A DNA stretch of 64,000 bases from a virus (IMGVR_UViG_3300045988_174992); one strand, 5' to 3'. Shown: positions 1,101-53,191, counted from the stretch's first letter. Program-made: numbers and translations. The notes: generated from the letters alone by a model not told the origin.

Positions 1101-3707
1101 TTATTTGTTTCTTATGATGAATATTGTATTAACATCATTAGAGAGAGAACCGAGACCAGCAAAATCAGTTGTATTACCAGACCAAACATAGCTAAAGTTA
1201 GAGTCACCACCACGTCCGGTGAATTTAGGACTATAATTAGCATTGTAAAGAATACCTTGGGTATATTGCTTGAATTTTTCTTCAACTTTTCTGTTTACTA
1301 TATCATCCATCTGATCTATACTTATGAAATCATTTCTTGTAGAAGCATCACCATCATATATGAAATACAAAGTATTTGGGTCTACTTGTTTGATCTTTAT
1401 ATAATCAGCATATTCACCTTTCCACATATAAGTAGGACCAGTACCATTCAATATAGAAGTAACTATTGGTTTCTTATCTATGAATGCAATACCATCTAAT
1501 GTTGGTGCTCTCTTTATTTCAAAAGCATTTGATCGATCTATATTGTTTGTTCCCCAACCAACTGAGAATAATGTATTATCTGATGATTTATTCCAGTTAC
1601 CAGAAGCATGCTCACCAGGATTTCTTGTTTCAGTACCTAATCCTTCAGCATGAGAATAACTTGCTCCAGTATGGCAATAAGTACCCCATCCTTCTGCATG
1701 ACAGAAATAAGCATAAGCATTATTTGGAGAACCATAAGTATCACCGTAATTATTGAAATATTCTGCACCAGTAAACATTGGCTTTAATACTTCGGGATTT
1801 TCTGGATCATTTATCAATGGATAGAAATTTTTTCTACCAGCAGAATTTCTCATAACATAAGTAACTGTTGCTACCTGTGCTAGTTGTCTTCTAGTAATAC
1901 AGTAAGATGATTCATTGTTTGCAACAGTAGAATAAGGATAGTCTTCTACATAATCCCAAGTGTATATTCCTTTATAAAGATAGCTTATTCCGTTCTCTCT
2001 TACATCTAAAGCATTTGATTCTCCATTAACATCACCATTACCTATCATAAATATGGTGTTTTGCTTTTCTAACTTAGGTGTATCAGTATAAGAACGTGTA
2101 TATCTACCAAAACCAACTTCATAAGGAGATTGTAGTGTTATATTAGAACCATGAGCAAACCCATAAGTTGCATTTTCTTCAACTCTGATGTTATAACCAG
2201 AAACATTGACAAAATCTATTCCTTTTTGATTATTTTCAATGTCTCCACTGTTTATTTCTAATAAACTACCTCTTAAAACAGAATAATTTGCATAACTATT
2301 TATAAATTTTCCATTTACTTCAGAGTATATACCCTTTACACTATTTAAAGTACCATAGATTACTACATTTTCACTGTTTGTATATACAGTATTTTCATTA
2401 CCACCAACATGAACATATTTTGTATCACCTATACTCTTTCCTATTCTATTTGCATATCCTTCTATATGGCTTGTATAGGCATAAGTTAGATGGCCAACAC
2501 CTTCTATGTGAGATTCTTTACCAAAATTATTTGAATCTTTTCCTTCTACATGTGAATTTATAGCATAATTCTTATTATTCAATCCTTCTATATGTGAATA
2601 GTGAGAATTAGTTATTATACCTATATTTCCACCATTTACATTATTATCACCTTCTACATGAGAAGATTTTGAAAATGATATTCTATTGTTTGATCCTTCA
2701 ATATGTGAAGAATCAGACAATGCATTTATTGTATTAGTGTTTCCTTCAGCATGTGCATAAGGAGAATATACTTCAGTTTCAGCCCCTTCAGTATGAGAAT
2801 CCTCTCCTGCAGCTATAGTATGATTTCCTTCTGCATGAGAATTCTTACTTCTAGCTTCTGTATTGTAACCTTCTGAATGAGAATTTTCTCCTGATGCTTT
2901 TGTTATATTGCCTTCTGCATGGGTATTAGTAGATGTTGCTTGAGATTTGTAACCTTCAGCATGGCCATTTTCACCAACAACTAAAGTATTGTTACCTTCT
3001 GAATGGGCATTCTTTGCTCTGACTATTGTATTCAAACCTTCAGCATGTCCATTTTCACCAGTATTTTCTACTATTGTAGTATTTCCTTCAGCATGAGCAT
3101 TCTTTGCACTTATAGTTGTATTGTAACCTTCAGCATGGCTATTTTCAGCTTCAGGTTCTACTTTAGTTATATTACCTTCTGAATGTGATCCTTTGGCTTT
3201 TGCATAAGTATTGTTTCCTTCAGCATGAGAATCTTCTCCTATTGCATAAGTAATGAATCCTTCTGTATGAGAATTTCTGCCTTGTGCTTCAGATTTATCA
3301 CCTTCAGCATGAGAGTTCATTCCTCTAGAATAAGAAGAATTACCTTCAGCATGAGAATTCTCTCCTAATGAATAAGAAGAATTGCCTTCAACATGTCCAT
3401 TAACTCCATTTACAAATGTTTTGTATCCTTCTGCATGAGAATAATTTGATTTAGCAATAGTGCTATATCCTTCTGCATGGGAATATGCACCAAGTGCTAT
3501 ATTATTCTGAAGATCATTGAATATTTCACCATACGATAATGTACCTGGATATACATTACCAAATGGCATACCTTGGTGCCATATAGTACGATGGTTTACA
3601 TCAAATATCAATGAATCCCAATAAGAATATATCATCTTATCAGGAACAAAGCTATCATTTTTATAATCTGTACCGTGTATGTATGTGTAAAAAAGCTTGT
3701 TTGCCAT
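1101..3707 (-). CDS. tail fibre/adhesin with 14-aa xSHAEGxxTxAxG repeats (YadA-head/Hep_Hag-like beta-roll periodicity)
   Basis: 868-aa ORF with about 25 consecutive SHAEG/SHSEG/SHIEG units. Has RSNAFEI and NALDVRENG neck-like motifs and two copies of a YxWxG...NTxxFI C-terminal signature. Confidence 0.75.
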   Translation of the reverse strand: MANKLFYTYIHGTDYKNDSFVPDKMIYSYWDSLIFDVNHRTIWHQGMPFGNVYPGTLSYGEIFNDLQNNIALGAYSHAEGYSTIAKSNYSHAEGYKTFVNGVNGHVEGNSSYSLGENSHAEGNSSYSRGMNSHAEGDKSEAQGRNSHTEGFITYAIGEDSHAEGNNTYAKAKGSHSEGNITKVEPEAENSHAEGYNTTISAKNAHAEGNTTIVENTGENGHAEGLNTIVRAKNAHSEGNNTLVVGENGHAEGYKSQATSTNTHAEGNITKASGENSHSEGYNTEARSKNSHAEGNHTIAAGEDSHTEGAETEVYSPYAHAEGNTNTINALSDSSHIEGSNNRISFSKSSHVEGDNNVNGGNIGIITNSHYSHIEGLNNKNYAINSHVEGKDSNNFGKESHIEGVGHLTYAYTSHIEGYANRIGKSIGDTKYVHVGGNENTVYTNSENVVIYGTLNSVKGIYSEVNGKFINSYANYSVLRGSLLEINSGDIENNQKGIDFVNVSGYNIRVEENATYGFAHGSNITLQSPYEVGFGRYTRSYTDTPKLEKQNTIFMIGNGDVNGESNALDVRENGISYLYKGIYTWDYVEDYPYSTVANNESSYCITRRQLAQVATVTYVMRNSAGRKNFYPLINDPENPEVLKPMFTGAEYFNNYGDTYGSPNNAYAYFCHAEGWGTYCHTGASYSHAEGLGTETRNPGEHASGNWNKSSDNTLFSVGWGTNNIDRSNAFEIKRAPTLDGIAFIDKKPIVTSILNGTGPTYMWKGEYADYIKIKQVDPNTLYFIYDGDASTRNDFISIDQMDDIVNRKVEEKFKQYTQGILYNANYSPKFTGRGGDSNFSYVWSGNTTDFAGLGSLSNDVNTIFIIRNK
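2447..3482 (-). repeat. 42-nt periodic coding repeat array (SHAEG units) in fibre gene
   Basis: catgctgaaggt-type cores (read on the reverse strand) recur every 42 nt. Spurious alternative-frame ORFs arise from the periodicity. Confidence 0.7.
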
Positions 3708-3752
3708 TTTATATATGCTTTATAATCTATGCTTATATCTAAAAATAAAAAT

Positions 3753-3772
3753 GGGAAGCATTCCTGCTTCCC
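3753..3772 (-). terminator. intrinsic terminator after GT2 gene
   Basis: Stem gggaagca/tgcttccc with a 4-nt loop. On the reverse strand it is followed by TTTTTATTTTT. Confidence 0.6.
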
Positions 3773-3813
3773 ACCAATATAGATTATTTACATAAATTAT
3801 TTACATAGATTAT

Positions 3814-4809
3814 TTACATACCTGGCAAACTGTTCAAATCTGTCTTGATATACTTTGCTTTCATTTCCTTATTCAAATCTGGGTTCAATTCTGGATCCAT
3901 TTCTACATTATATGTGATATCCTTCCACTTATCTGGATAAATGAACTTAAGCATATATGTATTCAATTTTGACATTTCATCAAAACCTTCACATTCACTT
4001 GACTTGTTGTTCATAATGGCTTCCAAATCAATCATAGAACGTGTATACATGGCTTTAAGAAGCTGTCTATCATCTTTGAATCTTGGGAACAATTCCGCTA
4101 TAGCAGAAATAGTGCCAAGTCTTGTATCAACCCAATTAGTTCTGATAATAGAATTAGATGCCGCTCTGTAGTTGATTTGTGGAATTGGCATAATAACAAC
4201 TTTATTGCAATTGCTTATCCATACTGGAATTGTTCTTACATCTTCAAATGTTCTTACTGTTGAATAAGGATAGCTTTCCACAATCTTTCTTGTATACATC
4301 TTAGACCAAACATTGAACTTGATGAGATTGTCTTTAAATAAAGCTATCTCCATATCATGAGGATCAGTAAGCACAATCTTCTGTGGAGCCGTAGAATTAG
4401 ATTGCTGTCCATTCTGTTGATTGTATATGACACCATATTCTACAACATCAGCATTTTCAGATGTAATTGTATTGTAAGCATTTTCTACAAAGTCAAGATG
4501 AATATAGTAATCATCTGCATCCAAGAACATGAAATAATTTCCTGTAGCATTTTCAATACCAAACTTACGAGCACCACCACATCCAAGATTATTTTCAGGT
4601 TCTACTAGCTTAAACTTGAAATTATCTTTTGATGTATTGTTTATGATATTCTCAACAATATTTCTAGAATTGTCTTGTGATTTGTCATCTACCAAAACAT
4701 ATTCAATTTCACAACCATCTGGTACTTTCTGACCTAAAACAGAGCCAATAGCATTACCAATAAACGTCTGTGCATTGTAAAATGTTGTTATAATTGATAT
4801 CTTATCCAT
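3814..4809 (-). CDS. family-2 (GT-A) glycosyltransferase
   Basis: ISIITTFYNAQTFIGNAIGSVLGQK..YVLVDDKSQDNS..GCGGARKFGIENATGNYFMFLDADDYY matches the classic GT2 N-terminal signature with DxD. Confidence 0.8.
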   Translation of the reverse strand: MDKISIITTFYNAQTFIGNAIGSVLGQKVPDGCEIEYVLVDDKSQDNSRNIVENIINNTSKDNFKFKLVEPENNLGCGGARKFGIENATGNYFMFLDADDYYIHLDFVENAYNTITSENADVVEYGVIYNQQNGQQSNSTAPQKIVLTDPHDMEIALFKDNLIKFNVWSKMYTRKIVESYPYSTVRTFEDVRTIPVWISNCNKVVIMPIPQINYRAASNSIIRTNWVDTRLGTISAIAELFPRFKDDRQLLKAMYTRSMIDLEAIMNNKSSECEGFDEMSKLNTYMLKFIYPDKWKDITYNVEMDPELNPDLNKEMKAKYIKTDLNSLPGM

Positions 4810-4810
4810 G

Positions 4811-5452
4811 TTAGACTTCTAATTTTTTTAATTTGTTCATGGTAGGTGACATCACTATCTCTATAGTGTTTTCTGTGATACGTTGAGTAACATAGAATTT
4901 CCACCCATAAGCATTCATATCAGCTGGTACGGCATATCCTCTCTGTTTTTTAGATTTTCCTGTAGAATTAGGTTCACAATATTCTCCTGGCTTACACTTA
5001 CCATTATCACGTACAATTACTTTACCAATCAAATTTACTCGTACCCATTCTTTACGATTACTACGTTTTACATATTCTTGCTTTGGATCATAATATTGAC
5101 TTGGTACCTGTACATAATGATTATATGGTCTAGTGTGAATATATGAAAACTCTTCTACTTGGTCATACTCTTTTACACCAATAGCAATCTTATCATTCTT
5201 CAAAAACTTATCACCAACTTCATTACACATATATGCATATTTCCAATTGTTTGGATCATCTGAAGTATGTGACGTTTGAATAGTTGTTACACCAAGAATC
5301 TGTTCATCAGAACCAGATTTTACAGGTTCTATCTTATCAGGATTTTCAGAAGAAAATGTAACAAAGAGTCCATAAGGACTCTCTGCTGGTATCTCGGCCC
5401 ACTCATACATTTCTGAATATCCAACTGGATTAATGTATTCGTTATCTTGCAT
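4811..5452 (-). CDS. stand-alone Peptidase_G2 / intramolecular-chaperone (IMC)-like domain protein
   Basis: GYSEMYEWAE..YGLFVTF..ILGVTT..YDPKQEYVKRSNRKEWVRVNLIGKVIVRDNGKCKPGEYC matches my recollection of the fibre C-terminal autoproteolysis domain (DYAEMFEW..FVTL..ILGVVS..R.EW..VGLLGQ..VRDDGTC). Confidence 0.55.
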   Translation of the reverse strand: MQDNEYINPVGYSEMYEWAEIPAESPYGLFVTFSSENPDKIEPVKSGSDEQILGVTTIQTSHTSDDPNNWKYAYMCNEVGDKFLKNDKIAIGVKEYDQVEEFSYIHTRPYNHYVQVPSQYYDPKQEYVKRSNRKEWVRVNLIGKVIVRDNGKCKPGEYCEPNSTGKSKKQRGYAVPADMNAYGWKFYVTQRITENTIEIVMSPTMNKLKKLEV

Positions 5453-5455
5453 TAT

Positions 5456-6055
5456 TTACTCACCATACATATATTTGATTTGAGCATCCAATGTTGGACG
5501 AATCTTCTCCATATATAGAAGAAGATTAGCTGCCTCTTCACGTGGTTTAATAAGACTATACCAATCCTTATACAAATCACTCTCCTTCTTATCCTTAATC
5601 TGCTTAGATGTAAGAATAAACTTAGTTGGCATTGTATCCAAATATGGACTTACAAATCTAGCAAAGTCAGATCCAGAAATTGCATTTGGCAACTTAATTG
5701 TCATAATAGGATTGACCATAGCATTCTCTGCAGCCATCTCTACTGCTAGATCTTCATCCTGTCGATTGTCAATAGGATTCTGTCGTGATACACCTACAAA
5801 CAATACATAGCGCTCTAAAGGGTTTTTACTTGGACCATTCATCTTATAGAGCTTACCTACGAAGGTACTTGCGCAATATGTACCCTTCATAACAGCTCTT
5901 CGTCCGTTATCTAACACAGTTTCCTTTTCACAACTTCGATCAGTATGAATATCTGAAACAACAAACTCATCAACCAACTTCTTTGTACGAATTGTAAATG
6001 GATCTGGCTTAGCACCAATAATTGCATAAGCCTCTTCTAAAGGAATATTCTGCAT
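5456..6055 (-). CDS. hypothetical protein
   Basis: 199-aa ORF tightly packed with its neighbours. Promoter-like motif at 6116-6150 upstream. Confidence 0.6.
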   Translation of the reverse strand: MQNIPLEEAYAIIGAKPDPFTIRTKKLVDEFVVSDIHTDRSCEKETVLDNGRRAVMKGTYCASTFVGKLYKMNGPSKNPLERYVLFVGVSRQNPIDNRQDEDLAVEMAAENAMVNPIMTIKLPNAISGSDFARFVSPYLDTMPTKFILTSKQIKDKKESDLYKDWYSLIKPREEAANLLLYMEKIRPTLDAQIKYMYGE

Positions 6056-11537: not shown

Positions 11538-12005
11538 TTAAATTATTTCTATAGTGATATTTTCACCTCTACTTTTGCTTGCAATCTTCATCTTATTGTA
11601 AAGGTCTTTAAAGTAATTAGTAGAATTGCTTACCCATCCTACTTTATCATTTTTTCCTGGAATGATACAACCTTCTGTATCCGATGCAGAATTGCCTGGA
11701 TGTATCAATACACCATCATAACCAGGTACATTCAGTAATCTAGGCATATATGCTTGACAGAACTGCATCATTGTCTTAGATTTCTTATACTTAGGACTTT
11801 GTACATTCAATACAATTTCATAAGTACCAGTAGGAATTGCAGTGATTCCAGGTTTTTTCATGAACAGGATCTTTTCTTTAGTCATATTTTGATTAAGACC
11901 TCTGTCTTTATCTTCTATTGTATTAGAAAAGAATACACCATCCACATAAAGCTGTCCAATAGTATATCCTTCTTTCTTCCATTTTCTTACTAGTTTGAGT
12001 TTCAT
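11538..12005 (-). CDS. DUF5675/YkuD-like (L,D-transpeptidase-fold) cell-wall enzyme candidate
   Basis: YDGVLIHPGNSASDTEGCIIPGKN matches the H..G....S/T.GC active-site pattern of the YkuD fold. Confidence 0.5.
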   Translation of the reverse strand: MKLKLVRKWKKEGYTIGQLYVDGVFFSNTIEDKDRGLNQNMTKEKILFMKKPGITAIPTGTYEIVLNVQSPKYKKSKTMMQFCQAYMPRLLNVPGYDGVLIHPGNSASDTEGCIIPGKNDKVGWVSNSTNYFKDLYNKMKIASKSRGENITIEII

Positions 12006-14049: not shown

Positions 14050-14771
14050 GAAATCAAATTATATTGCAATCCTATTCCAATTCCATAAACAAATCCTTTA
14101 TTGCTATATCCTCCAAATACAGATGGACCTATTCCAAATTTCTTTTCTTTCTTTTGCTTAGGTATTGTTAGACCTGTTATTGAATTGAACTTTACATAAG
14201 GGTTGTCTGAAGTCATATATACAACATTATCTTTGACAACTAATGCATACTTGAACTGCATTATGTCTTTCTCTATATATAATCCTAAAGTATCATTAGT
14301 ATAACTTACATTACCTGTAAGATCTCTGTACTGGTTAGAAAAATCAAACTTTCTATATATATTCTTAGAAGTTATTTCAGTAACAGTGGGTACCCATACT
14401 GTATCATGCTTACCATTGTCTATTGAAGTTGATCCACCAATTACTATATCTGGTTTCTTTACTTGCATACTTTGTATCATTCTATATAGAGAATCATTGA
14501 TGATCTGCAAGTTCTTGTAATCAGTTTCTATCATTGTCTTCTTTGCTACTTCATTACCATACTTACCTTTATAATACTTTACAGAATCAGTAAGTGCTAT
14601 AATATTCTTATCATTTATATTTTTGTAATAAGTGCATTTATTGATTGACAAGGTTATAAATACGAAAAATGCAACCACTGAGAAAACTTCTATCAATATT
14701 CTCTTGTGATTGCGTACGAAAGTTAGGACCATTTGTCCCAACTTTTTACTCCATAAGCTTATTGCATTCAT
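14043..14771 (-). CDS. membrane-anchored protein with OMP-like C-terminal strand (spanin-like candidate)
   Basis: N-terminal TM segment ILIEVFSVVAFFVFITLSI. C-terminus reads ...GFVYGIGIGLQYNLISF with a terminal Phe. Overlaps the upstream hydrolase gene by 26 nt. Confidence 0.4.
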   Translation of the reverse strand: MNAISLWSKKLGQMVLTFVRNHKRILIEVFSVVAFFVFITLSINKCTYYKNINDKNIIALTDSVKYYKGKYGNEVAKKTMIETDYKNLQIINDSLYRMIQSMQVKKPDIVIGGSTSIDNGKHDTVWVPTVTEITSKNIYRKFDFSNQYRDLTGNVSYTNDTLGLYIEKDIMQFKYALVVKDNVVYMTSDNPYVKFNSITGLTIPKQKKEKKFGIGPSVFGGYSNKGFVYGIGIGLQYNLISF

Positions 14772-15363
14772 TTTGCAATTTGAATATTTTTGTTTTTTTC
14801 TTTATACACTCATAAGTTCTTTTCAATTCTCTTTCATAATTCTTATTAGATGAGTAACGATGACCATTCAAGTTAACGAAATTATTCATCAAGTGGTGAA
14901 CTGTTTTCTTCTTTCCTAGGTATTTTGTTTTCAATAAATCAATATAAGCGGTAGTAGAATGATTTCGATGCTTATAAGTCTTATATACACCATACATGCT
15001 TTTTCTTGATTTACCAATACCTGTTGTTCCAAAACAAGTTTCGTTCTGTGCTTGTGCTAATGCAAAGCAAATGTCAATGTCATTGTCAAGGCACTCCTTT
15101 ACAATGTGGCTACTAATGTCTTTGTCAAATTTTCTTGTAGTATTCTTTCTAATGTACTCTTCAACTTCACTTATCAATACAACTTTACAATTTTCAAGGG
15201 CAATTTTCTTGTTCATGAAAACAGCTTGCGCTGAATCCACTTTTTCGACATGCTCAATTTTGGTACCAGTCACATGCTTTGCCATTGCATGCTCTTCAGC
15301 ACCAAAAGGAGTAGAAACCACTAAAAACAATGACATTAATGTTAAAAGGATTTTCTTTTTCAT
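14746..15363 (-). CDS. secreted glucosaminidase-like peptidoglycan hydrolase (endolysin candidate)
   Basis: Signal peptide MKKKILLTLMSLFLVVSTPFGA. ALAQAQNETCFGTTGIGKSRKSMYGV and RYSSNKNYERELK resemble AQA.lESG.G...nN.FGi / YAtDp.Y of the FlgJ-type glucosaminidase domain. Confidence 0.45.
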   Translation of the reverse strand: MKKKILLTLMSLFLVVSTPFGAEEHAMAKHVTGTKIEHVEKVDSAQAVFMNKKIALENCKVVLISEVEEYIRKNTTRKFDKDISSHIVKECLDNDIDICFALAQAQNETCFGTTGIGKSRKSMYGVYKTYKHRNHSTTAYIDLLKTKYLGKKKTVHHLMNNFVNLNGHRYSSNKNYERELKRTYECIKKKTKIFKLQNECNKLME

Positions 15364-26411: not shown

Positions 26412-26463
26412 GCAGATAAAAGTATTTTTAAGTATAAGGATATATTAAAGAAGAAATCAACTG

Positions 26464-29400
26464 ATGATAACTAACAATTCTATAAAAGAGTACTATACAA
26501 AACTCCATGGCATGTACATTCAATGCTATGATATGATAAAAGCAATGACCCAGAGTTTGTCTACTAGAGATAGTCAAATATCTTTAGTAGTCACAAACCC
26601 TCAGGGTGAAAGGGAAACTTTAAGAATACCATCATTCTTATATCTTGACAATAAGATAGAGCAGTTGGATTCTTCATTATCTTCATTAATAGAACTTCCA
26701 AATTCTGGTGAAGCTTGGTTGGAGTCAACAAATGACTTGTATAAGATAAAGATGGTTAAGAATGGAATTTCTCCTTCAACACCTAAATTAGAATCTGCAA
26801 ATCCTATTGCGCTATTCAAAGATAACAATTTCTTAAAAGACTTAGTTTCTCCTAAGACTTATTTGAAAGTAAATATTCCAAACATGTCAGATATCATATC
26901 TTCAATGATGATGAAAAAGATAGTTATATATGATTATGATATGTATAATGCTTTATCTGGATACTCTTCTTATGAAGATATAAAGACTGCTTTATATGGA
27001 TATGTAAAAGGAAATGATTATGAAGAATATGATAGTGAACTTGATATTCCTATTAAGCAAGAAAGATATAGAAGTGCATTCAGAATAGAATCTATTCCGA
27101 CAAAAGAAGAATTAGGAAATAATAATCCACATGCTGTTTCTGTTGGTTCAAAACTTTCTTATGTTTTAAACTTAGATACATTTGAATATTTCAATTCAGA
27201 AGATTCAACTATTTCTTATCAGTTGAAAGCAGGTGATTTCTTATGCATGAAAGGACAATCTACTACATGGAAAGTAAAGAATGTAGATTATTCAAATATG
27301 CAGATAGAGATAGAAGAAACTTCTGGGCATACTGCATTACAAACCACAGAAGAAAATGCTGATATGGTTTTCTCTATATACAACAACAATTATTCAGACT
27401 ATCATTATGTTGAAGTACCATTAGAGGAAAACCAATATATCATAGTATTCTTATCAGCAATATCAAACAATACTAGATCTTCTTGGTCTACTCCATTGTT
27501 TTGTGATCTCAATTCTATATATGTGAAAGATGCTGGTGGTAATTTTGTACAAGATGAATACGGCAACAACCTTTCTTATCTGAAATATTATAAGAAATAT
27601 TGTACAAATATTGGTGATTTGATTCTTGGTATAACAAATACTGCTTATCCCCAAATAAGCAACTTTACTATGTCACAATTGGAATCATTACAGGATTCTG
27701 ATGATATGCAAATAGCTGTATCTAATACATTTGATACAGAAAACATATTGCAAGTTGTACCAATCAATAAGCATTTAGTAGATGATACAAGTAATGAAGA
27801 GATAAAGAGCTTACATGCTTCTAAGAATGATTTCCAACAACAAATATCTGCTAAGCAATCTGAAATTAATGAAGTGACAAATAAGCTCATGACTACTGAT
27901 TTCTCTAAAGAGATAACAGTAACTCAGAACTCTCTTAAAACCCAGCTTAATTCTCTATATACAGAAAAGACACATCTACAGTCACAGTTGAATTCTATAG
28001 TAGATGAAATAAACATAAAATCTACTGATTTAGATGTTACTGGAAATGAAGTAAAATATAGAGTAAGAGGAGTAACAGATGTAAAGTATCTTTCTCAACT
28101 TATTTCTTCAATAGGTAATGGAATAGATGTAGAGATAATTGGATGTGATGTTGAGTATAAATACAAATCAACAAATAAAGAAAACAACCAACTCATATCT
28201 ATAGATTCTTCTACTTTTACTGATTGGAATAGATTAAATAATATAGATAGACAAAGAAAGCTGGTATTTGACAATTCTGTTGGAGTTGAATTTGTTGATT
28301 ATTCTACAACAGATAACATTATCAAGTGGAATCAAATTGATATCCCAATACAGCAAGGTGAAGATGTAATCATAAGATTGAGATATAAACTCAATATTGG
28401 ACAACCATTTATTTCTATCTATACCCCTTGGAGTGATGAAAAGACTGTAGTATTCCCATCACAGTATAAGTCTAATATAGATTTGACAACTATACTTACA
28501 GAAAATGATAAAGATACTGTTACTTCATCGTTCTCAAAAACTTTGATAGATGATGGATATACAGAGCATATACAAGATAAAGTAATAAGTTCAGATCAAA
28601 CTTTCTTCCATACACCAGAAAACATATATTCTGGTTTCAACACAGCAGAAAATAAGATGATATCATTGAAGGATAAACTTAATGATATGAATAATAATGT
28701 TGAAAAATGGAAGACTTTGATAGATAATGAGTCAAATAGTAAATTTGAAGTATACTTGACTTATGATGATTATTCTATATTATTGTCACCTAATACAAAA
28801 AATTCAGTAAATATATATAACATCAACCATATTTCTGATATATTCATTAAGAAAAATATGAATATAGTAATAAAGAATACTGGTGATGTTAGACTTAATC
28901 TCTATAGTATATTCCCTGGCAATACAAATACCCCATTGATAAATTGTAATGTTGATTCTTATAATTCTAACTTAGCTAACTTTGAAAGAGTTCCAATGTT
29001 AGTAAACAATAAGATATCTGCACAGTATCTTGGCCAATGGATTTACTTTAGAGAGAATTCTGCTTGGAATGGATCTTCTATATATTTCTCAACCACTGAA
29101 CAGAATGGTAAAGATGAAACAAATGTTTCAAATGGTAATAGATTGGAGTATCAAATAACTCCTTCTAACTATATTGGAATAAAAAACAGACAAGTATTGT
29201 TAGGATATCGACCAAGACAAGGTTCATTACATTATTCTACAATAAGTACAAGTAGTGTAAAATGGAAAGGACTTGTTTTTGATAATATCAATTCTAAAGA
29301 TGGGGTAGATTATACAAAATTATTAGAATATACATCAAAATTAAATGAAATTTCTACTACAGAAAACAAGACTACGGATTCTATCTATGTAGATATAATA

Positions 29401-31712: not shown

Positions 31713-34700
31713 ATGGGTAATAAAATTCCATCTAGAGTATATGATACAAAAGGAAGAGTTGTAGATGTTGCATTCTCAATGAGAAGAAACACCAAGCAAC
31801 CATTGGATGAATCTTCTCTTCCTTTAAGTTATGATTCTTTAAAAGAAGAGATGAGGACTGGTACTTCATCTATATATAAGGGTCAAATTGTTGTAACTCA
31901 AGGACCTGAAACAATACCAGAAGGAGAAAACCAATCATATTATTATACTCCTTTCCTAATAAAGAATGAAGGTAATAGTGATGTTTCTTATTATGCTGAT
32001 AGAATCATGACTGCTACTTATACTAATACGTTCTTAAATGGAGAATTTGTAAAGAAAAAGCAGTTAGGTACTTCATATACTGGTGTTGGTAAATGGCCAG
32101 ATGCAACAGAAGATAGAGGTTCATTAGCTTACAATGAAATATTCAATGACTATAGTACTTATAGGATTACAAATAACCTTAAAGGTGAAACACCAATAAT
32201 GTCTCATGTTGAAGGTAAGTCGAATACTTTAGCAGGATCTTTTACCCATATAGAAGGATATAACAATACTGGTGGTAGTGATTTTAGTCATGTAGAAGGA
32301 GCAAACAATAATTCTTCTAACAATGCTTCTTATTCACATGTAGAAGGTGAATCAAATTCTGCAATAAATTCAAGCTATTCACATGTTGAAGGTCATTCAA
32401 ACCAGGCAATATCTGCAGCGGCTTCCCATGCTGGTGGTAGTAATTCTAAAGCACTTGGAAACAATGCATTTGTACATGGTACTAACTCTGTTGCTTTTGA
32501 AAATGCTATAGCTATAGGAAAATCAACTTATGCTAAAGCAGGATTTGCTACTGGTATTAATACATCATCTTATGGTATTGGTGCATTTGCAACTGGCAAT
32601 AAGACAATAGCTAATGCTAATTATTCTGTTGCTGAAGGTGAAGGTTCTATATCTAATGGCCAAGGTTCTCATGCTGAAGGTAAAGAATCTAAAGCTTATG
32701 GTAAATATTCGCATGCTGAAGGATTTTCTGTTACTGGTTCATCTACAAATACAGATTTAGGATCCTATTCTCATGCAGAAAATAAGTCAACAGTATTAGG
32801 TACATATTCTCATGCAGAAAACAATGCACAAATAACAGAAACCGCTAACTATGCTCATGCCGAAGGTAGTGGTAAAGCAATTGGTTCATTCTCTCATGTA
32901 GAAGGAACAAACACTGTTACAACAGGTACTGGTGGCCACGCTGAAGGTATTGAAACCAATGCTTATGAATATAGTCATGCTGAAGGCAATTTCTCTTATG
33001 CAAAAGGTACTTATGCTCATGCTGAAGGTAATAGAACAATGTCAGCTGGAACAAGTACACATGCAGAAGGTACTTATACATCAGCTTATTCAATAGCTTC
33101 ACATGCTGAAGGTGGATATGGCATGGCTAATTCAAATTATAGTCATGTTGAAGGTTATAAAACTTATGTTACTTCAAATGCTATAGGTGGACATGCCGAA
33201 GGTAATGGATCATATACAACAGCAGAATATGCTCATGCTGAAGGTGTTGGTACTTATGCTTCTGGATCCGGATCACATGCTGAAGGTATAAGTACTCAAT
33301 CTATAGGTCAATCATCACATGCTGAAGGTAACACCACTATAGCAGAATCTACTTCAGCACATGCAGAAGGTGAGCGTACTAAAGCTATAGGGCAATCATC
33401 CCATGCTGAAGGTGTTTCATCTAATGCTGGTGGAATTGGATCACATGCTGAAGGTAATGGTACTTATGCTAATGGAGTATCATCACATTCACAAGGTGTA
33501 TCAACTTATGCCAATGGAGAAGGATCATTTGCTAGTGGAAATAAGACAACAGCGCAATCTAATTTCTCTTCTTCATTTGGTGTATCAACTTATGCAAACG
33601 GAATTGGCTCTGTATCAGAAGGAAACAATACATCATCTTATGGAGAATTCTCACATTCATCTGGTGTTGGTACTATAGCAAGGGGATCTTACTCTTCTAC
33701 TGATGGTTTCTATACAGTATCTAAGAATAAGACAGAAGTTGGACATGGTACATATAATAGATCATATTATTCTGCTAATGGTTTCTTAGTAGAAAACAAT
33801 GATACTAATAAGATTCCTAATGAATTTGCTCGTGTAAATAACAAATACTTACCAGGTAGATATCCTAATGGAATAGATGGTACTAATAATACAACATCTG
33901 TTGGTTTTTATGAATCCAGTTATGAAACTATTTTCAGTATTGGAAATGGTGGAACTAGTGATACAACAAAAGGCCCTAGTGCTTTATATAAAAAGAAAAT
34001 AGGTGAAACTACTGAAAAGGAACCTATTTATAGTTATGCTGGTAATTATGTAAAAGAAAATTCACGCCATAACATTATGGATATTAGAAAGAATGGTCAG
34101 ATGTATTATGATGGAGGTATGATAATAGGTGGTGAAGTTGTTGCTCCAACATCATATAGCTATGTAAATTCATTAGGTCCAACTGCATATCTGACTACGG
34201 TTATGAGAGCTTTACTTGTACAACCTAAATATTACAGACCTAGTTTACAATATGCTATTTGGTATACTGGAAATAGGATTGCGAACGCAGTTACTTCTAG
34301 TGATAGTGTTGGATGGTCATATTTCCAAAATAGCCAGAATTCTGATGGTATTTGTGAAGTAGGTGCTACAACTAGTTTTGATATACAGTTTAGAGCATTT
34401 AATGTAGGTGTTGATAAACCACAAAACATAGACCCTATATATGGTACTTCATTAGGAAACATGTTGGGTTATTCTACTGGTATAAGGGAAATAACTTATT
34501 TTAAATTACCAGATGGGTCTAATATATCAGCACAAAAATTTGATAAAGTAATACATGATAAAGAATTGCTTGCTGGTATGAAAAGTGATACAGCTTATTA
34601 TTGGCCTAAGAGATTAGTGGCAAACAATGAAGATGTTACAGATCCTAATTATATATATTTGAATGATACTGGAGCAAAAGACCCTTACCATAAATTCAAT

Positions 34701-35591
34701 TGGGCACCTCCTTATGATTATGCTAATTCATATAATTTAGCTTATTATAGTTCATACTGTAATGCTGTGGATAATAGAGGTGCTTTTGGTGAAACCGGTA
34801 AAACAAATTATAACATAGGATTATATTCAACAAGAAGTACAATCTCTAGTTCTATCAAGCTTGATAGGGAAGGTAAATTTACTGTTTGGACAGCATATTC
34901 ATATATATTTAATCCGGCAACCCAAATGTATTTTCAACAACTTATGGAAAAAGCAACATATATACCTGATGATGGTGCCGCACCTTATGATAAATTTACT
35001 GAATTACCTTCATATTCATCTGCATCTTTTACTTTGACGGCAAGATATAGAATATATTATGGTACTACAAATGATGTTCCTTATATAATGGAAAACGGTG
35101 TTCGTAAACCTAATCCATTATGGAAAAAATGGACACAAAATGAATTATTAGGTAAGAAGAATGCTGCTGTTGGAAGATCTAATGGTGATATAGACCATGG
35201 CCATTTATATGGTAATTTACAAGCAGCTTCTGGACAAACACAACAATCTAATGCATCAATAAGTAGATCTGTTAAAACTTGTTGGTTTGCATATCCAACC
35301 AATATATACAGTCTTTACAAACATAATAGTAGCGCTGTACCTAATGGATTCTATATGTATTACAAAAACCAGATGAATGTTGAATCTGCTCTTGATACTG
35401 GTGTTAGAACTCCAGCATCTGATAATGATAATGGGGATGCATTAAGCACAACAAATACTGGACGTGAAAAGTATGAGTTTACTACAGATAATCCAATTAA
35501 TCCTAGTGGATTGAGATATCACATAGTTGCAGTATGTGCACCAGGTGATATTACTAAAGGTACTTGGGGATTCGCATTTAAACGAAAATAA
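31713..35591 (+). CDS. tail fibre/adhesin with SHAEG/SHVEG 14-aa repeats
   Basis: 1292 aa. The shared pre-repeat motif YNEIFNDYS is followed by about 35 repeat units and a large non-repeat C-terminal domain. Confidence 0.75.
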   Translation: MGNKIPSRVYDTKGRVVDVAFSMRRNTKQPLDESSLPLSYDSLKEEMRTGTSSIYKGQIVVTQGPETIPEGENQSYYYTPFLIKNEGNSDVSYYADRIMTATYTNTFLNGEFVKKKQLGTSYTGVGKWPDATEDRGSLAYNEIFNDYSTYRITNNLKGETPIMSHVEGKSNTLAGSFTHIEGYNNTGGSDFSHVEGANNNSSNNASYSHVEGESNSAINSSYSHVEGHSNQAISAAASHAGGSNSKALGNNAFVHGTNSVAFENAIAIGKSTYAKAGFATGINTSSYGIGAFATGNKTIANANYSVAEGEGSISNGQGSHAEGKESKAYGKYSHAEGFSVTGSSTNTDLGSYSHAENKSTVLGTYSHAENNAQITETANYAHAEGSGKAIGSFSHVEGTNTVTTGTGGHAEGIETNAYEYSHAEGNFSYAKGTYAHAEGNRTMSAGTSTHAEGTYTSAYSIASHAEGGYGMANSNYSHVEGYKTYVTSNAIGGHAEGNGSYTTAEYAHAEGVGTYASGSGSHAEGISTQSIGQSSHAEGNTTIAESTSAHAEGERTKAIGQSSHAEGVSSNAGGIGSHAEGNGTYANGVSSHSQGVSTYANGEGSFASGNKTTAQSNFSSSFGVSTYANGIGSVSEGNNTSSYGEFSHSSGVGTIARGSYSSTDGFYTVSKNKTEVGHGTYNRSYYSANGFLVENNDTNKIPNEFARVNNKYLPGRYPNGIDGTNNTTSVGFYESSYETIFSIGNGGTSDTTKGPSALYKKKIGETTEKEPIYSYAGNYVKENSRHNIMDIRKNGQMYYDGGMIIGGEVVAPTSYSYVNSLGPTAYLTTVMRALLVQPKYYRPSLQYAIWYTGNRIANAVTSSDSVGWSYFQNSQNSDGICEVGATTSFDIQFRAFNVGVDKPQNIDPIYGTSLGNMLGYSTGIREITYFKLPDGSNISAQKFDKVIHDKELLAGMKSDTAYYWPKRLVANNEDVTDPNYIYLNDTGAKDPYHKFNWAPPYDYANSYNLAYYSSYCNAVDNRGAFGETGKTNYNIGLYSTRSTISSSIKLDREGKFTVWTAYSYIFNPATQMYFQQLMEKATYIPDDGAAPYDKFTELPSYSSASFTLTARYRIYYGTTNDVPYIMENGVRKPNPLWKKWTQNELLGKKNAAVGRSNGDIDHGHLYGNLQAASGQTQQSNASISRSVKTCWFAYPTNIYSLYKHNSSAVPNGFYMYYKNQMNVESALDTGVRTPASDNDNGDALSTTNTGREKYEFTTDNPINPSGLRYHIVAVCAPGDITKGTWGFAFKRK
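32205..33708 (+). repeat. 42-nt periodic coding repeat array
   Basis: tc(a/t)catgc(t/a)gaaggt cores recur every 42 nt. Confidence 0.7.
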
Positions 35592-35677: not shown

Positions 35678-38600
35678 ATGGCAGTAAAACCAATAGGAAC
35701 AACCGCACTTACATGGGGTAGCTTGCTAGGTAGAGGTAACCGAGAACCAATTGATGCAACTCAATTGAATTATTCTTATACTGATCTCCTCTGGGAATTG
35801 AATCAAAGAACAGTATCATATCAAATTGGTACAAATAATGGTGGATCAGGTAACTATTATGTTGGATTAATTACAGCGGTACCTTATGTAAATGAAGATG
35901 ATAAAAGAAAAGATAGTCATTATACAGTAGATGCTAATGGTAATAAGAAATTAGAAACTATAAATATGAAAGGTCCTTGGTATGTATCTTATAAAGGTAC
36001 AGACAAAGGAAGAGGTACTGCGAAAAATAAATATGGTTTTGTTCCTGATGGTAATCCTAATACATATTATGCAGATAGAATAGTACTTAAGCAAGAGATG
36101 GACTATACTCTTGATAATGGTTTTGTTCGTAAAACACAGCTTGGTACTTATTATACAGGTGTTGGTCATTGGTATGACAGCTATACTAAATCAAAAACTT
36201 ATGCAAATGGTTTAGAATGTCCTGATGGTGTTTATTTTCCTACTACTTCTTATGCTGAAATATTCAATAACTATACATATAATGTAGCTACTGGTATATT
36301 TTCTCATGCCGAAGGTGGAAGTACTACGGCAAGTGGACATTCTTCACATGCTGAAGGTGGGGGTACTACGGCAAGTGGACATTCTTCACATGCTGAAGGA
36401 AACAATACTACATCAAGTGGAGGTAGTTCTCATGCTGAAGGAAAAAATACTAAGGCAAGTGGAAATGAATCTCATGCTGAAGGAGAAAACACCACAGCAA
36501 GTGGAGGTGGTTCTCATGCTGAAGGTATAAGTACTCAATCTATAGGTCAATCATCACATGCTGAAGGTACTTTATCTTATGCTGGTGGAAATGAATCTCA
36601 TGCTGAAGGTAATAATACTAAAGCTAATGGAGATAGTTCCCATGCTGAAGGTGGAAGTACTACAGCAAGTGCACATTATTCACATGCAGAAGGTTATAGT
36701 ACTACAGCAAGTGGAGATTTTTCTCATGCCGAAGGTGGAGATACTACGGCAAGCGGAGATCATTCACATGCAGAAGGTTACTATACTAAAGCAAGTGGAA
36801 GTTGTTCTCATGCTGAAGGTACTGGTACTACGGCAAGCGGAGATTATTCACATGCTGAAGGTCACTATGCTAAAGCAAGCGGAGATTATTCACATGCTGA
36901 AGGTCACTATGCTGAAGCAAGCGAAGATTATTCACATGCTGAAGGTGGAAGTACTACGGCAAGTGGATATTATTCACATGCTGAAGGTATTGGTACTACA
37001 GCAAGTGGATATTATTCACATGCTGAAGGTTCTGGTACTACAGCAAGTGGATATTATTCACATGCTGAAGGTGATAGTACCAAGGCTACTGGATTTAGAT
37101 CTCATGCTGAAGGTACTGGTACTACGGCAAGCGGAGATCATTCACATGCAGAAGGTGCTCTTACTACAGCAAGTGCACATTATTCACATGCTGAAGGTTA
37201 TTCTACTTATGTACATAGTACTGCTGAAAACTCTCATGCTGAAGGTTTTGGATCTTACACTAACGGATTAAATGCACATGCAGAAAACAGTTCTTATGCA
37301 AATGGAAAGAATTCACATTCTGGAGGTGAAGCAACTGCTGATGGGGTCAATTCATTTGCTCATGGTGTAAAAGGAACATTAGCTTCTGGGGTGAATAGTA
37401 TAGCTTTAGTTTCTGGAACTGCATCAGGATCTAATTCTATTGCTTTTACCGGTACTGCTTCTGGTAATAGTTCTATATCTTTAGATGGTACAGCTTCTGG
37501 ATCTAATTCTGTTTCTATACAAGGTACAGCTAAATCAACAGATAGTGTTGCTATTGGACAAGGTGCTATAGCAGAAACAGGCCAAGGTGCTATGGCTTTA
37601 ATAAAAGGACATGCTACTGGACAACAATCATTAGCTACTAATACAAGTTCTGCTTCAGGAACAAATTCCGTAGCTATGAATGTAAGTTCTGCTTCTAATA
37701 CCCAATCATTTGCTGTAAATAATAGTACTGCTTCAGGTATAAATTCTGCATCAACCAATAAAGGTAATGCTTCTGGTGAAAATTCTATTTCTACCAATAT
37801 AAGTACTGCAACTGGAGTTAATTCTGCTGCTTTAAATAATGGTAATGCTTCTGGTGAGGGATCTGTTGCTATGAACTATAGTCAAGCTACTGGTAAAGGT
37901 AGTGTTGCTATTGGTTTAAATACTATTGCATCTGGTGAATATTCACTTTCTCATGGTCATGAAACAAGAATTTCAGGAAATTATAGTGTAGGTTTAGGAC
38001 AAGGAATAAAAGTTTCATCAAACACAAATGTTAGCACTGGTAAGTTTAATAAAGATGAAGCAAGCTACTTTGCTGTTGGTATTGGTATTTCTGATACAAA
38101 TAGAAAGAATGCATTTTGGATTAGCCAGGGTACAACAGCTGGTACTAATGGGGTAAGTTATTTCAGTAACAATACTTATGTATATGGCAATACTTATGAT
38201 CCAAGTCAATATCCAAATAATAAAGAAGATAAGTCATGGTCAGTTGCAGTAACATATAATATGTACAGAAATAGCTATACTTATTTGTATAATACAATAG
38301 ATGATAAATTTGCCACTTTTGGTACCGGAACATATTTTACTCATTCAATTGATGGATTGACTTATACTCCTACTACTAATGTATTCCATTGGAAAACACA
38401 AATATTTGATAAAGATAATAATATCTGGCCTAAACAATCATATTCTTTTACATTTACCCAAGCAAACCATACCAATGCAGGTGTAATGTCTGCTGAAGAT
38501 AAGAGAAGATTAGATAGTATAAAGGGATTTACTTATGATAATGGTAATACCCATGAATACAATTTTAATGAAAATCATACAAAGGGTGATAATTTACATA

Positions 38601-38971
38601 GTTTCCATATAAATACAGATGGTACTATTGGATATACAGGATGGACACAAGGATTTAAATATACAAATAATGAAAGTACTGTAACATTATCATATACACA
38701 TTATACAGGAAATGATAGCAGTATAAATATACCAGTATTGAATGATGGTAATACTATTAACCAAGGATCTGCTAATGCTTCTAAGGCTGGTATAGTTACA
38801 GCAGATCAATATAATAAGATTGTTTCTAGATTGACTTACCTTGAAAAATGGTGTATGTGGCAATCTGGATTACCTAACAACAAGTCTACTTATATTTGGT
38901 CAGGTACATTAGCACAATTTAATTCATTGACATCCAAACCAGAAAATACAACATTTATCATATCAAATTAA
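35678..38971 (+). CDS. tail fibre/adhesin with SHAEG repeats followed by NSxAxG (Hep_Hag-like) repeats
   Basis: 1097 aa. About 24 near-identical SHAEGxxTTASGxx units are followed by GVNSIALVSGTASGSNSIAFTG...-type units, then DTNRKNAFWISQ, ending TYIWSGTLAQFNSLTSKPENTTFIISN. Confidence 0.8.
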   Translation: MAVKPIGTTALTWGSLLGRGNREPIDATQLNYSYTDLLWELNQRTVSYQIGTNNGGSGNYYVGLITAVPYVNEDDKRKDSHYTVDANGNKKLETINMKGPWYVSYKGTDKGRGTAKNKYGFVPDGNPNTYYADRIVLKQEMDYTLDNGFVRKTQLGTYYTGVGHWYDSYTKSKTYANGLECPDGVYFPTTSYAEIFNNYTYNVATGIFSHAEGGSTTASGHSSHAEGGGTTASGHSSHAEGNNTTSSGGSSHAEGKNTKASGNESHAEGENTTASGGGSHAEGISTQSIGQSSHAEGTLSYAGGNESHAEGNNTKANGDSSHAEGGSTTASAHYSHAEGYSTTASGDFSHAEGGDTTASGDHSHAEGYYTKASGSCSHAEGTGTTASGDYSHAEGHYAKASGDYSHAEGHYAEASEDYSHAEGGSTTASGYYSHAEGIGTTASGYYSHAEGSGTTASGYYSHAEGDSTKATGFRSHAEGTGTTASGDHSHAEGALTTASAHYSHAEGYSTYVHSTAENSHAEGFGSYTNGLNAHAENSSYANGKNSHSGGEATADGVNSFAHGVKGTLASGVNSIALVSGTASGSNSIAFTGTASGNSSISLDGTASGSNSVSIQGTAKSTDSVAIGQGAIAETGQGAMALIKGHATGQQSLATNTSSASGTNSVAMNVSSASNTQSFAVNNSTASGINSASTNKGNASGENSISTNISTATGVNSAALNNGNASGEGSVAMNYSQATGKGSVAIGLNTIASGEYSLSHGHETRISGNYSVGLGQGIKVSSNTNVSTGKFNKDEASYFAVGIGISDTNRKNAFWISQGTTAGTNGVSYFSNNTYVYGNTYDPSQYPNNKEDKSWSVAVTYNMYRNSYTYLYNTIDDKFATFGTGTYFTHSIDGLTYTPTTNVFHWKTQIFDKDNNIWPKQSYSFTFTQANHTNAGVMSAEDKRRLDSIKGFTYDNGNTHEYNFNENHTKGDNLHSFHINTDGTIGYTGWTQGFKYTNNESTVTLSYTHYTGNDSSINIPVLNDGNTINQGSANASKAGIVTADQYNKIVSRLTYLEKWCMWQSGLPNNKSTYIWSGTLAQFNSLTSKPENTTFIISN
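36296..37313 (+). repeat. near-perfect 42-bp tandem coding repeats
   Basis: Example: tcacatgctgaaggtgg.agtactacggcaagtggacattct repeated with 1-2 mismatches. Generates spurious ORFs in other frames. Confidence 0.85.
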
Positions 38972-52246: not shown

Positions 52247-53191
52247 ATGGGTGCAATACCAGGACAAATGCAAGCAAAATGCATTGATTATGGACAGAAT
52301 TTCTTAACAGGACAAGCAACTTCAGTTATTGCTGCTACTGGTATTGATATAGAAGCTGGCAATTTGAAACAGTTGGCAGATGCTGTACAAGACAAGACTA
52401 TGTCTATGGTTTCTGACTTGAAGAATACAGCTACTAAAGAAGTAACTAAAATTGGAAGTCAGATAGGTGGCATGGCTGGTAGCTTAGTTGGTGCTGGATT
52501 ATCTGCTATGCAAGGAGCTTTTCAAACAGCAGATGTTGCTAAGCAAGCGGTTGGAGAACTTACAACGTATGGGGTTCAACTTACTGCTAAAATCGGTACT
52601 AATATAGCAAGTATGATTGCTGCATTTCCTGCACAAGTTACCAAGAAAGCTACTGCTATAGCTGCAGAACAATGTAAAGAAGAACTTCAACAACGATTGA
52701 AAGAAGTGATGGGTACACCAGCAGAAGAGCATGCACAAAAGGAAGCAGAAAAGGAAAAAGAAAACAAAACAAAGAAAGCAATAACTTGGTGTAAGAAAGC
52801 TGTAAAAGATGTCAATGAATTCAAAGATAAGACACTGTCATCTATTCAGAAAGATTGTGAAGATATATCTGCTTTGATGATACAAGGTCCAGGTTGGGTA
52901 AACAATCAGATGAGTGGTGCTATTGATAGTGCTAAAACATATATGTCTGATTATGCCGATGGCAAAATGAAAGATATTCAGAATCATTATGATGAAGCTG
53001 TGAATAATTCTGCTTACGCCGCAGCTACAACAATGAAGAAAAAACTTATAGATCCAACATTAGAAAAAGCTAAAGAACAATTTAATGATCTTGGAACATC
53101 AACAAATAAGACAAAGCAAAAAGCTAAGACAGCTGTTCAAAAACAGTTGTTCAAGCTTGCAGGAAAATTAGGAATATCACCAAATGGCTAA
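52247..53191 (+). CDS. Ala/Gln/Lys-rich coiled-coil protein (scaffold-, internal- or small-terminase-like; unassigned)
   Basis: 314 aa. Translationally coupled to terL through an ATGGCTAA overlap. Confidence 0.5.
   Translation: MGAIPGQMQAKCIDYGQNFLTGQATSVIAATGIDIEAGNLKQLADAVQDKTMSMVSDLKNTATKEVTKIGSQIGGMAGSLVGAGLSAMQGAFQTADVAKQAVGELTTYGVQLTAKIGTNIASMIAAFPAQVTKKATAIAAEQCKEELQQRLKEVMGTPAEEHAQKEAEKEKENKTKKAITWCKKAVKDVNEFKDKTLSSIQKDCEDISALMIQGPGWVNNQMSGAIDSAKTYMSDYADGKMKDIQNHYDEAVNNSAYAAATTMKKKLIDPTLEKAKEQFNDLGTSTNKTKQKAKTAVQKQLFKLAGKLGISPNG

Follow-up and report, generated by a model that had tools for sequence, protein, structure and literature searches.

The 213-amino-acid (aa) protein encoded by open reading frame (ORF) 4811–5452, on the minus strand of the viral sequence IMGVR_UViG_3300045988_174992, is a genuine stand-alone homologue of the Peptidase_G2 domain, the intramolecular chaperone (IMC) of the phi29 gp12 type. 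The stretch analysed here, referred to as the window, comprises 64,000 nucleotides (nt), or 64 kb, of a phage genome of ~290 kb. That the intramolecular chaperone of a phage fibre or tailspike acts in cis and then cuts itself off is textbook knowledge. Can such a domain lead an existence of its own? Comparison with its relatives best supports the view that the 213-aa protein descends from the G2-type C-terminal IMC of fibres composed of SHAEG repeats and is now free-standing and non-cleaving. It persists as an independent gene, tied to a GT2 glycosyltransferase, across a widespread clade of uncultured jumbo phages.

A free-standing Peptidase_G2 domain

The Pfam profile Peptidase_G2 (PF11962) matches residues 11–166 of the 213-aa protein with E=4.1e-17 and 62.8 bits (gathering cutoff 25), and the match covers profile positions 50–197 of 228. 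A preliminary description of this DNA had named the same family from inspection of the sequence, and the profile search bears it out. The corresponding PHROG is phrog_4775, pre-neck appendage protein (E=9.5e-9). A model produced by AlphaFold2 (AF2) from the family alignment is almost entirely composed of beta strands (predicted local distance difference test, pLDDT, 86; predicted template modelling score, pTM, 0.73). Foldseek aligns this model with 3gqh_A, the C-terminal fragment of phi29 gp12 (E=2.9e-9, template modelling score, TM, 0.71 on the target), and with 3suc, the pre-mature form of gp12 (E=3.2e-9); no other PDB entry is matched significantly. In BFVD, the best matches fall at the C-terminal ends of long viral proteins that carry the annotation Peptidase G2 or collagen-like, and a few uncharacterised stand-alone entries of 175–201 aa are found there as well.

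The domain occurs once in the window. A hidden Markov model (HMM) of the family, applied with HMMER filters off to every stop-to-stop frame of the 64 kb, recovers ORF 4811–5452 itself at E=1e-101, and the six-frame translation of the whole window contains no second copy, the next best match having an E-value of 0.67. The preliminary description had noted the absence of the domain from the three SHAEG fibres of the window, F1 (1101–3707, minus strand), F2 (31713–35591, plus strand) and F3 (35678–38971, plus strand). Indeed, none of the three matches Peptidase_G2 even at E≤1, and none is hit in the six-frame scan.

The released C-terminal fragment of phi29 gp12 consists of residues 692–854 (PDB 3GQH, 163 aa), and the junction at which it is cut reads ...GGNTWS|DFAEYFE. 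In an alignment with phi29 gp12 and 88 fused representatives, the motif G11-Y-S-E14-M-Y-E-W18 of the window protein (GYSEMYEW, 5399–5422, minus strand) falls on the cleavage site S691|D692-F-A-E695. The ORF starts 10 residues ahead of the released domain, much as the preliminary description had it when it placed the opening of the ORF almost at the IMC motif, and across the stand-alone family the leader that precedes the motif is mostly 9–11 residues long. In fused proteins, the match begins at profile position 10–11 and reaches the C-terminus of polypeptides of 300–1800 aa. The junction of the nearest fused relatives reads ...Y-x-S-T-G-A|D-Y-A-E-[MFY]-F-E-W, that of the window protein MQDNEYINPV-G-Y-S-E-M-Y-E-W; where the autocleavage motif of the fused forms, D-[YF]-A-E-x-x-E-W, has its Asp, the window protein has Gly.

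Is this exchange a peculiarity of a single phage? We fetched 239 proteins for a residue-by-residue comparison. Gly occupies the position in 120/124 proteins with an N-terminal motif, and Asp is present in 91 proteins with an internal motif, with one exception. With redundancy removed at 70% identity, every stand-alone protein has Gly at position 11 (61/61) and every fused one has Asp (70/70). About 25 positions, by contrast, are conserved to at least 85% with the identical residue in both groups, including E14, E17, W18, G28, F30, V31, W70, Y127, R130, R133, E135, W136, D149, G151, C153 and C159. E14, which corresponds to phi29 E695, the Glu three residues past the cleavage Asp, is invariant in both groups. 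A second group-specific position is 64, Ser in stand-alone and Gly in fused proteins. An N-x-x-E-D-R motif right after the cleavage site is confined to the fused group and lost from the stand-alone proteins, which in turn have conserved positions of their own (M15, F33, P67, Y96, I105, T107 and I146). The sequences thus show directly that the residue defining the scissile bond is systematically removed, with the remainder of the domain kept under unchanged constraints.

In phi29, D692 and E695 reportedly form the catalytic pair, in keeping with the MEROPS definition of family G2. Every non-redundant stand-alone member has Gly in place of the Asp behind the scissile bond, so that the protein should not be an autoprotease and is not expected to cleave itself. 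For the same 61/61 versus 70/70 split, the part of the preliminary description that envisaged a processing factor is unlikely to hold. The one protein with an internal motif and Gly is P0230, a 277-aa protein with a non-fibre N-terminus. At 47% identity and 168 bits its similarity to fused forms far exceeds that to the stand-alone family, which reaches 34% and 98 bits. Since P0230 nests among the fused forms, the exchange of Asp for Gly accompanied detachment from a fibre at least twice. Another non-fibre G2-like protein with Gly at the Asp position, P0136 (177 aa), also lies outside the main family.

How large is the stand-alone family, and who carries it? A search of ~5.8 billion proteins returned 90 homologous clusters with 40–98% identity to the 213-aa protein; all but one incomplete entry are 195–233 aa long, and PF11962 is their sole annotation. 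A filter-free profile search of 1.84 billion representatives (50% identity) yielded 3122 proteins at E≤1e-3. The 39 representatives at E≤1e-30 are essentially the stand-alone family, and after a clear gap the fused forms follow at E=1e-26 to 1e-20. The carriers are jumbo phages of about 290 kb, seen in metagenomes only. They form a very abundant clade, whose contigs measure 245–301 kb and whose clusters each comprise hundreds of sequences. No isolated phage in GenBank has a member of the stand-alone family: tblastn gave weak matches to fused forms only, in SPbeta-like and Clostridium phages, and megablast with 25 kb of the window found nothing. The searchable literature likewise holds nothing on stand-alone G2-type domains. 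In JGI/IMG, the clusters of P0030 and its relatives are labelled 'trimeric autotransporter adhesin', which is misleading.

Nei-Gojobori estimates against three close relatives give the G2-like gene a ratio of nonsynonymous to synonymous substitution rates (dN/dS) of 0.07–0.10, a sign of strong purifying selection. Given this ratio, the extent of the family (90 clusters reaching down to 40% identity) and the ~25 conserved core positions, the stand-alone gene is functional and not a remnant.

The beta-barrel body of the model shows weak fold similarity to phage proteins of ~120–175 aa named DUF2190, 'capsid fiber protein' or 'structural protein', and likewise to chain 8pkh_FN of the Borrelia phage BB1 procapsid (E=0.04). 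These model comparisons hint that capsid decoration-type proteins and the body of the IMC have an ancestor in common.

A conserved trio with a glycosyltransferase

Four co-directional ORFs follow one another on the minus strand of the window: a small ORF of 199 aa (5456–6055), the 213-aa G2-like gene, a 331-aa GT2 glycosyltransferase (3814–4809) and the 868-aa fibre F1. The stop of the G2-like gene and the start of GT2 are 1 nt apart, exactly as stated in the preliminary description. The latter also placed the G2-like gene close upstream of a fibre gene. F1 does lie downstream, but GT2 and a gap of 106 nt intervene, and this gap bears a structure resembling an intrinsic terminator (3775–3750, minus strand), an 11-bp GC-rich hairpin stem followed by the T-run TTTATTTTTA.

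For comparison we took 25 further loci from contigs in ENA, Logan and IMG/VR. In each, the gene directly ahead of the G2-like gene is a homologue of the 199-aa ORF; the gene behind it is an orthologous GT2 in all but one, so that the full trio is present in ~17/18 distinct lineages. Within the trio, the gaps measured across lineages range from −14 to +36 nt. In three of the loci (L001, L004 and L006), identity to the window proteins is 33–44% for the small ORF, 44–59% for the G2-like protein and 58–66% for GT2. The exception, L030 (6829–7962), has the small ORF and a shorter G2-like gene of 184 aa, then a dUTPase and no GT2. Downstream of the trio, conservation ends. An F1 orthologue is found there solely in the clade of the window, L021 and L001; L012 has a 574-aa protein with the fibre junction motif described below, L006, L010 and L011 have a dUTPase and an OmpA-like gene, and elsewhere giant ORFs of 1000–2600 aa occur on either strand. 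Fibre-like or giant proteins adjoin the trio in most lineages. Because the small ORF and GT2 recur beside the G2-like gene while the downstream genes vary, the conserved unit is the trio itself, which looks like a transcription unit of its own. Hairpins comparable to that of the window (dG≤−12 kcal/mol) follow GT2 in 8/16 lineages examined.

GT2 matches PF00535 (Glycos_transf_2) at E=4.7e-26. Its DxD motif, 'DAD' at residues 97–99, is conserved in 8/8 lineages checked, and with a dN/dS of 0.04–0.06 against the same three relatives it is the best-conserved member of the trio. In the PDB it is related (E=1e-11 to 1e-8) to transferases for polysaccharide, teichoic acid or protein O-glycans, and in NCBIfam it scores far below every equivalog cutoff. 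The best PHROG, 'GtrB-like O-antigen conversion', covers the N-terminal GT-A core alone (residues 2–127). GtrB-like bactoprenol glucosyltransferases carry C-terminal transmembrane helices, whereas the window GT2 is predicted to be soluble, with no transmembrane segment (maximum Kyte-Doolittle 19-residue average 0.98). It is, to judge from these matches, a generic GT-A enzyme.

The first gene of the trio is the least tractable. Its homologues are 137–182 aa long and present in all lineages examined, and the gene evolves fast, with a dN/dS of ~0.30–0.33 in the same comparison. The 199-aa protein has no match in Pfam, PHROG or NCBIfam; its AF2 model reaches a pLDDT of 62 and finds no Foldseek match below E=0.03. 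A homologue search returned near-identical sequences only, and a search that started from a divergent member returned only the query. A 341-aa protein, P0102, was considered as a Rosetta-stone fusion and discarded: its N-terminal 150 aa are G2-like, the rest is unrelated and is not GT2, and the protein looks chimeric or frameshifted.

Upstream of the trio, several genes recur (L004, L006, L011 and L012), namely a T4 gp2-like DNA end protector, DUF5672, a protein with a TnsA-like N-terminal domain, and DUF5675; the last is also present in the window (11538–12005). In L010, an NAD-dependent sugar-nucleotide epimerase/dehydratase (110–1048) lies two genes upstream of the trio and fits a glycan-related neighbourhood.

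A possible role in trans, and its alternatives

Where does a detached IMC come from, and on what could it act? Outside the stand-alone family, the nearest relatives of the 213-aa protein are the G2 IMCs fused to SHAEG fibres, such as P0140, P0141, P0142 and spr_46 of Bacillus phage SPR. They have a C-x5-C motif and the ~25 positions in common with the stand-alone family, and their fibres have the repeat type and the helix-terminating motif seen in F1. They differ in that the domain forms the last ~180 residues of a 300–1800-aa protein and follows a junction, ...GA|DYAE, that retains the Asp. At least three SHAEG-like repeats are present in 50/88 of the nearest fused representatives, with a maximum of 46 (P0140–P0142 are examples). 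The statement in the preliminary description that this domain normally ends SHAEG-repeat fibres is correct for this branch.

All three fibres of the window match phrog_25468 (F1, E=8e-47; F3, E=8e-70). F1 contains 16 SHAEG-like repeats. F2 (1292 aa) contains 13, the last at residue 577 with ~700 residues beyond it, and F3 (1097 aa) contains 23, the last at residue 519; over the three fibres, 290–700 non-SHAEG residues follow the last repeat. In fused fibres a helix-terminating motif, F-x-[IV]-G-N-G ... S-N-A-[FL]-x-V ... G-x-v-y, stands directly before the IMC. For a junction HMM we took, from each of the 88 fused proteins, the 60 residues that lead up to the cleavage site. F1 has two significant copies, at residues 526–581 (1965–2132, minus strand, E=1.1e-7) and residues 694–732 (1512–1628, minus strand, E=3e-9); F2 and F3 have weak ones. 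After the second copy, F1 continues with a C-terminal tip region of ~135 aa in place of an IMC. F1–F3 belong, then, to the class of fibres that normally bear this IMC, and its place is held by other, retained domains. We also considered the sequence 'DYVEDY', which follows the first junction motif of F1, as a cleavage relic or a site of cleavage in trans. The HMM alignment ends before it and the L021 and L001 orthologues lack it, and we rejected this candidate.

We put the probability at roughly 0.4 that the G2-like protein is a detached IMC which acts in trans on a trimeric beta-helical virion protein, with GT2 acting on the same client. A G2-type IMC would have split from a SHAEG-type fibre and lost the residue needed for self-cleavage, while the detached domain would have kept the part responsible for folding, for trimerisation and, in phi29, for capping the beta-helix. 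The protein would form a trimer of the same kind as the fused domain and serve as an assembly template or cap, in trans, for a trimeric beta-helical virion protein without an IMC of its own; in the window phage, the three SHAEG fibres are the candidate clients. GT2 could modify that client, or the G2-like trimer could deliver GT2 to it. Either way the protein would be a chaperone or adaptor and not a protease. Judging from its ancestor and from the detached S74-type chaperones known in Alteromonas phages, assembly or capping in trans is its most likely activity. Chaperoning in trans is plausible on these grounds; fibres may, in addition, be glycosylated.

Domain D4 of phi29 gp12 (PF11962, MEROPS G2; 3GQH, 3SUC) belongs to the same sequence family and has the same fold as the 213-aa protein, in which the Glu of D-x-x-E and the motif Y-x-x-R-x-x-R-x-E-W are kept. 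The window protein differs from D4 in being unfused, with a 10-residue leader in place of a fibre, in having Gly for the Asp after the scissile bond, so that autocleavage is not expected, and in sharing its operon with the small ORF and GT2, partners that have no equivalent in phi29. As it fails two features of G2 IMCs, the Asp after the scissile bond and fusion to the C-terminus of a fibre, it should not be filed as a G2 peptidase. For annotation this means that proteins of ~200 aa that match Peptidase_G2 are neither proteases nor 'pre-neck appendage proteins'.

The general idea of a detached IMC has a precedent in the S74 type; the case described here is a G2-type IMC that is an independent, non-cleaving gene in an operon with GT2. 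V22 gp27 and A5 gp9 of Alteromonas phages are separately encoded tail-fibre chaperones that resemble S74 IMCs; a functional fibre needs V22 gp27, whereas A5 gp9 can be dispensed with although it binds its fibre (PMC10579305). Like the 213-aa protein they are stand-alone, uncleaved and IMC-like, and they act between molecules as a chaperone or transient cap. They are, however, alpha-helical IMCs of the S74 type (K1F, T5) with beta-hairpin tentacles, whereas the 213-aa protein is of the beta-stranded G2 type, and Foldseek aligns its model with the S74-type structure 3gw6 only at E=2.5. Their genes directly follow those of the client fibres, whereas the G2-like gene lies upstream of F1 with GT2 and a terminator between; nor do they have a glycosyltransferase as partner. 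More remote parallels are T4 gp38 and gp57A and Tfa of Mu and P2, small, separately encoded factors for the folding of trimeric fibres, some of which stay at the tip (general knowledge; PMC4690869, PMC10579305). We detected no relationship in sequence or fold between these factors and the 213-aa ORF.

If the G2-like protein acts in trans, the principle of the detached IMC, so far limited to the S74 type, would extend to a second IMC fold, and several fibres could be served by a single chaperone. Folding of fibres could then be tied to glycosylation of the virion, which bears on the host range of gut phages and on their immune recognition.

Several observations weigh against a detached chaperone for fibres. 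A fibre gene is not a conserved neighbour of the trio and is absent in most lineages, while GT2 is conserved. The proximity to F1 on which the preliminary description drew is real, but the linkage that is conserved is with GT2 and the small ORF. In the window, the terminator-like hairpin splits the trio from F1. L030, which lacks GT2, shows in turn that the partnership with GT2 is not absolutely obligatory. The helix-terminating junction would be the expected docking site of a detached IMC; outside F1, no window protein has a significant junction motif and none ends at the motif, so the window offers no obvious client end. In F1–F3 the SHAEG helix is followed by 290–500 aa of other domains. 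The surface on which the ancestral IMC docked, where the helix ends at its C-terminal side, is therefore not exposed, and trimerisation might start from these extra C-terminal domains. The window covers 64 kb of the ~290-kb genome, and the real client, or fused G2 fibres, may be encoded elsewhere.

Could the protein instead be a part of the particle? The G2-like protein might be a virion component that descends from the IMC body and forms a small trimeric knob, the tip of a fibre or a decoration subunit; it would remain on the particle because it is not cleavable, and may itself be a substrate of GT2. The strictly conserved Gly and the strong purifying selection agree with this, as does the tight translational coupling with the glycosyltransferase, which suits a pair of enzyme and substrate. 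There is also the weak fold likeness to 8pkh_FN, and to capsid-type BFVD entries of ~125 aa (E=1e-3 to 1e-1). The decoration-like fold matches, however, have low TM values (0.35–0.47 on the query) and high root-mean-square deviations, the similarity in sequence to cleaved-off IMC domains is far stronger than that to any structural protein, and the family is carried by no isolated phage. We regard a virion component as the weightiest of the alternatives, though still an unlikely one.

A closer variant of the trans-acting chaperone makes the trio a machine for the glycosylation of a fibre or another virion protein. The non-cleaving IMC trimer would be its client-recognition subunit, docking on the nascent trimeric beta-helical protein as the fused IMC does and holding the soluble GT2, with the small ORF product as a third subunit. 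We consider so specific an arrangement rather improbable. If true, the folding and the glycosylation of the host-recognition apparatus would be mechanistically coupled, and the complex would represent a new kind of phage morphogenetic assembly and a new fate for an intramolecular chaperone.

We are equally doubtful of a glycosylation module unrelated to fibres, in which GT2 would act on a glycan of the host envelope or on phage DNA and an exapted G2-like protein would provide a subunit for oligomerisation or regulation. Within the trio GT2 is conserved best and is the nearly invariant partner; its best PHROG is the GtrB-like one, and its NCBIfam and PDB relatives make polysaccharides or teichoic acids. 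A dUTPase is the next gene in several lineages, a sugar-nucleotide epimerase lies upstream in one, and some phages are known to glycosylate DNA with GT-A enzymes (bioRxiv 10.1101/2023.12.21.572611), which supports such a module. Against it, GT2 has no transmembrane segment, unlike GtrB, and the neighbourhoods examined contain no partner of the 5mYOX/TET or thymidylate-synthase type. The trio, moreover, is surrounded by lysis genes and by fibre-like or giant genes of putative structural function, and a module of this kind would leave the retention of the IMC fold with its full conserved core unexplained.

That the ORF is the decaying remnant of a fibre gene broken by insertion of GT2, as its start near the old cleavage site and the missing catalytic Asp might suggest, is refuted by the dN/dS of 0.07–0.10 and the conservation of the ~25 core positions and is most improbable, since the G2-like gene lies upstream of the fibre rather than downstream, the family comprises 90 clusters of conserved length, and the Gly is fixed and not variable.

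Further features of the window

The tips of F1 (1101–1700, minus strand) and F3 (38372–38971, plus strand) have a module in common (BLASTP E=5e-4), with the pattern ...Y-[VI]-W-[ST]-G-x4-F-x2-L ... N-T-x-F-I-I-x-N. An additional, internal copy of this module in F1 reads TYMWKGEYADYIKIKQVDPNTLYFI. F3 also has a weak match to Pfam Phage_tail_C.

Two short sequences near the end of the trio were examined. At 3779–3820, just upstream of the terminator hairpin, there are 3.2 repeats of a 13-nt unit (minus strand, ATGTAAATAATYT); the array begins at the final codon of GT2 and its stop, and each unit contains ATG-TAA. Exact copies of ATTTTTANNTATAAG are found 20–35 nt upstream of F1 (3732–3746, minus strand) and of a 1145-aa gene at 26464 (26424–26438, plus strand), and looser versions precede several large ORFs. 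We rejected it as a common promoter motif: the window contains 16 copies against 16.8 expected by chance in AT-rich sequence. A scan for sigma-70 promoters gave a count not above the shuffled expectation.

The large subunit of the terminase (53184–55985, plus strand) is unusually long at 933 aa. PHROG matches extend across residues 68–794, with one family aligned to two separate stretches, which suggests a possible insertion in the gene. Finally, a 205-aa ORF at 14746–15363 (minus strand), ~9 kb from the trio, has a sub-threshold match to the glucosaminidase family PF01832 (E=2e-6) and likely encodes a lysis enzyme.

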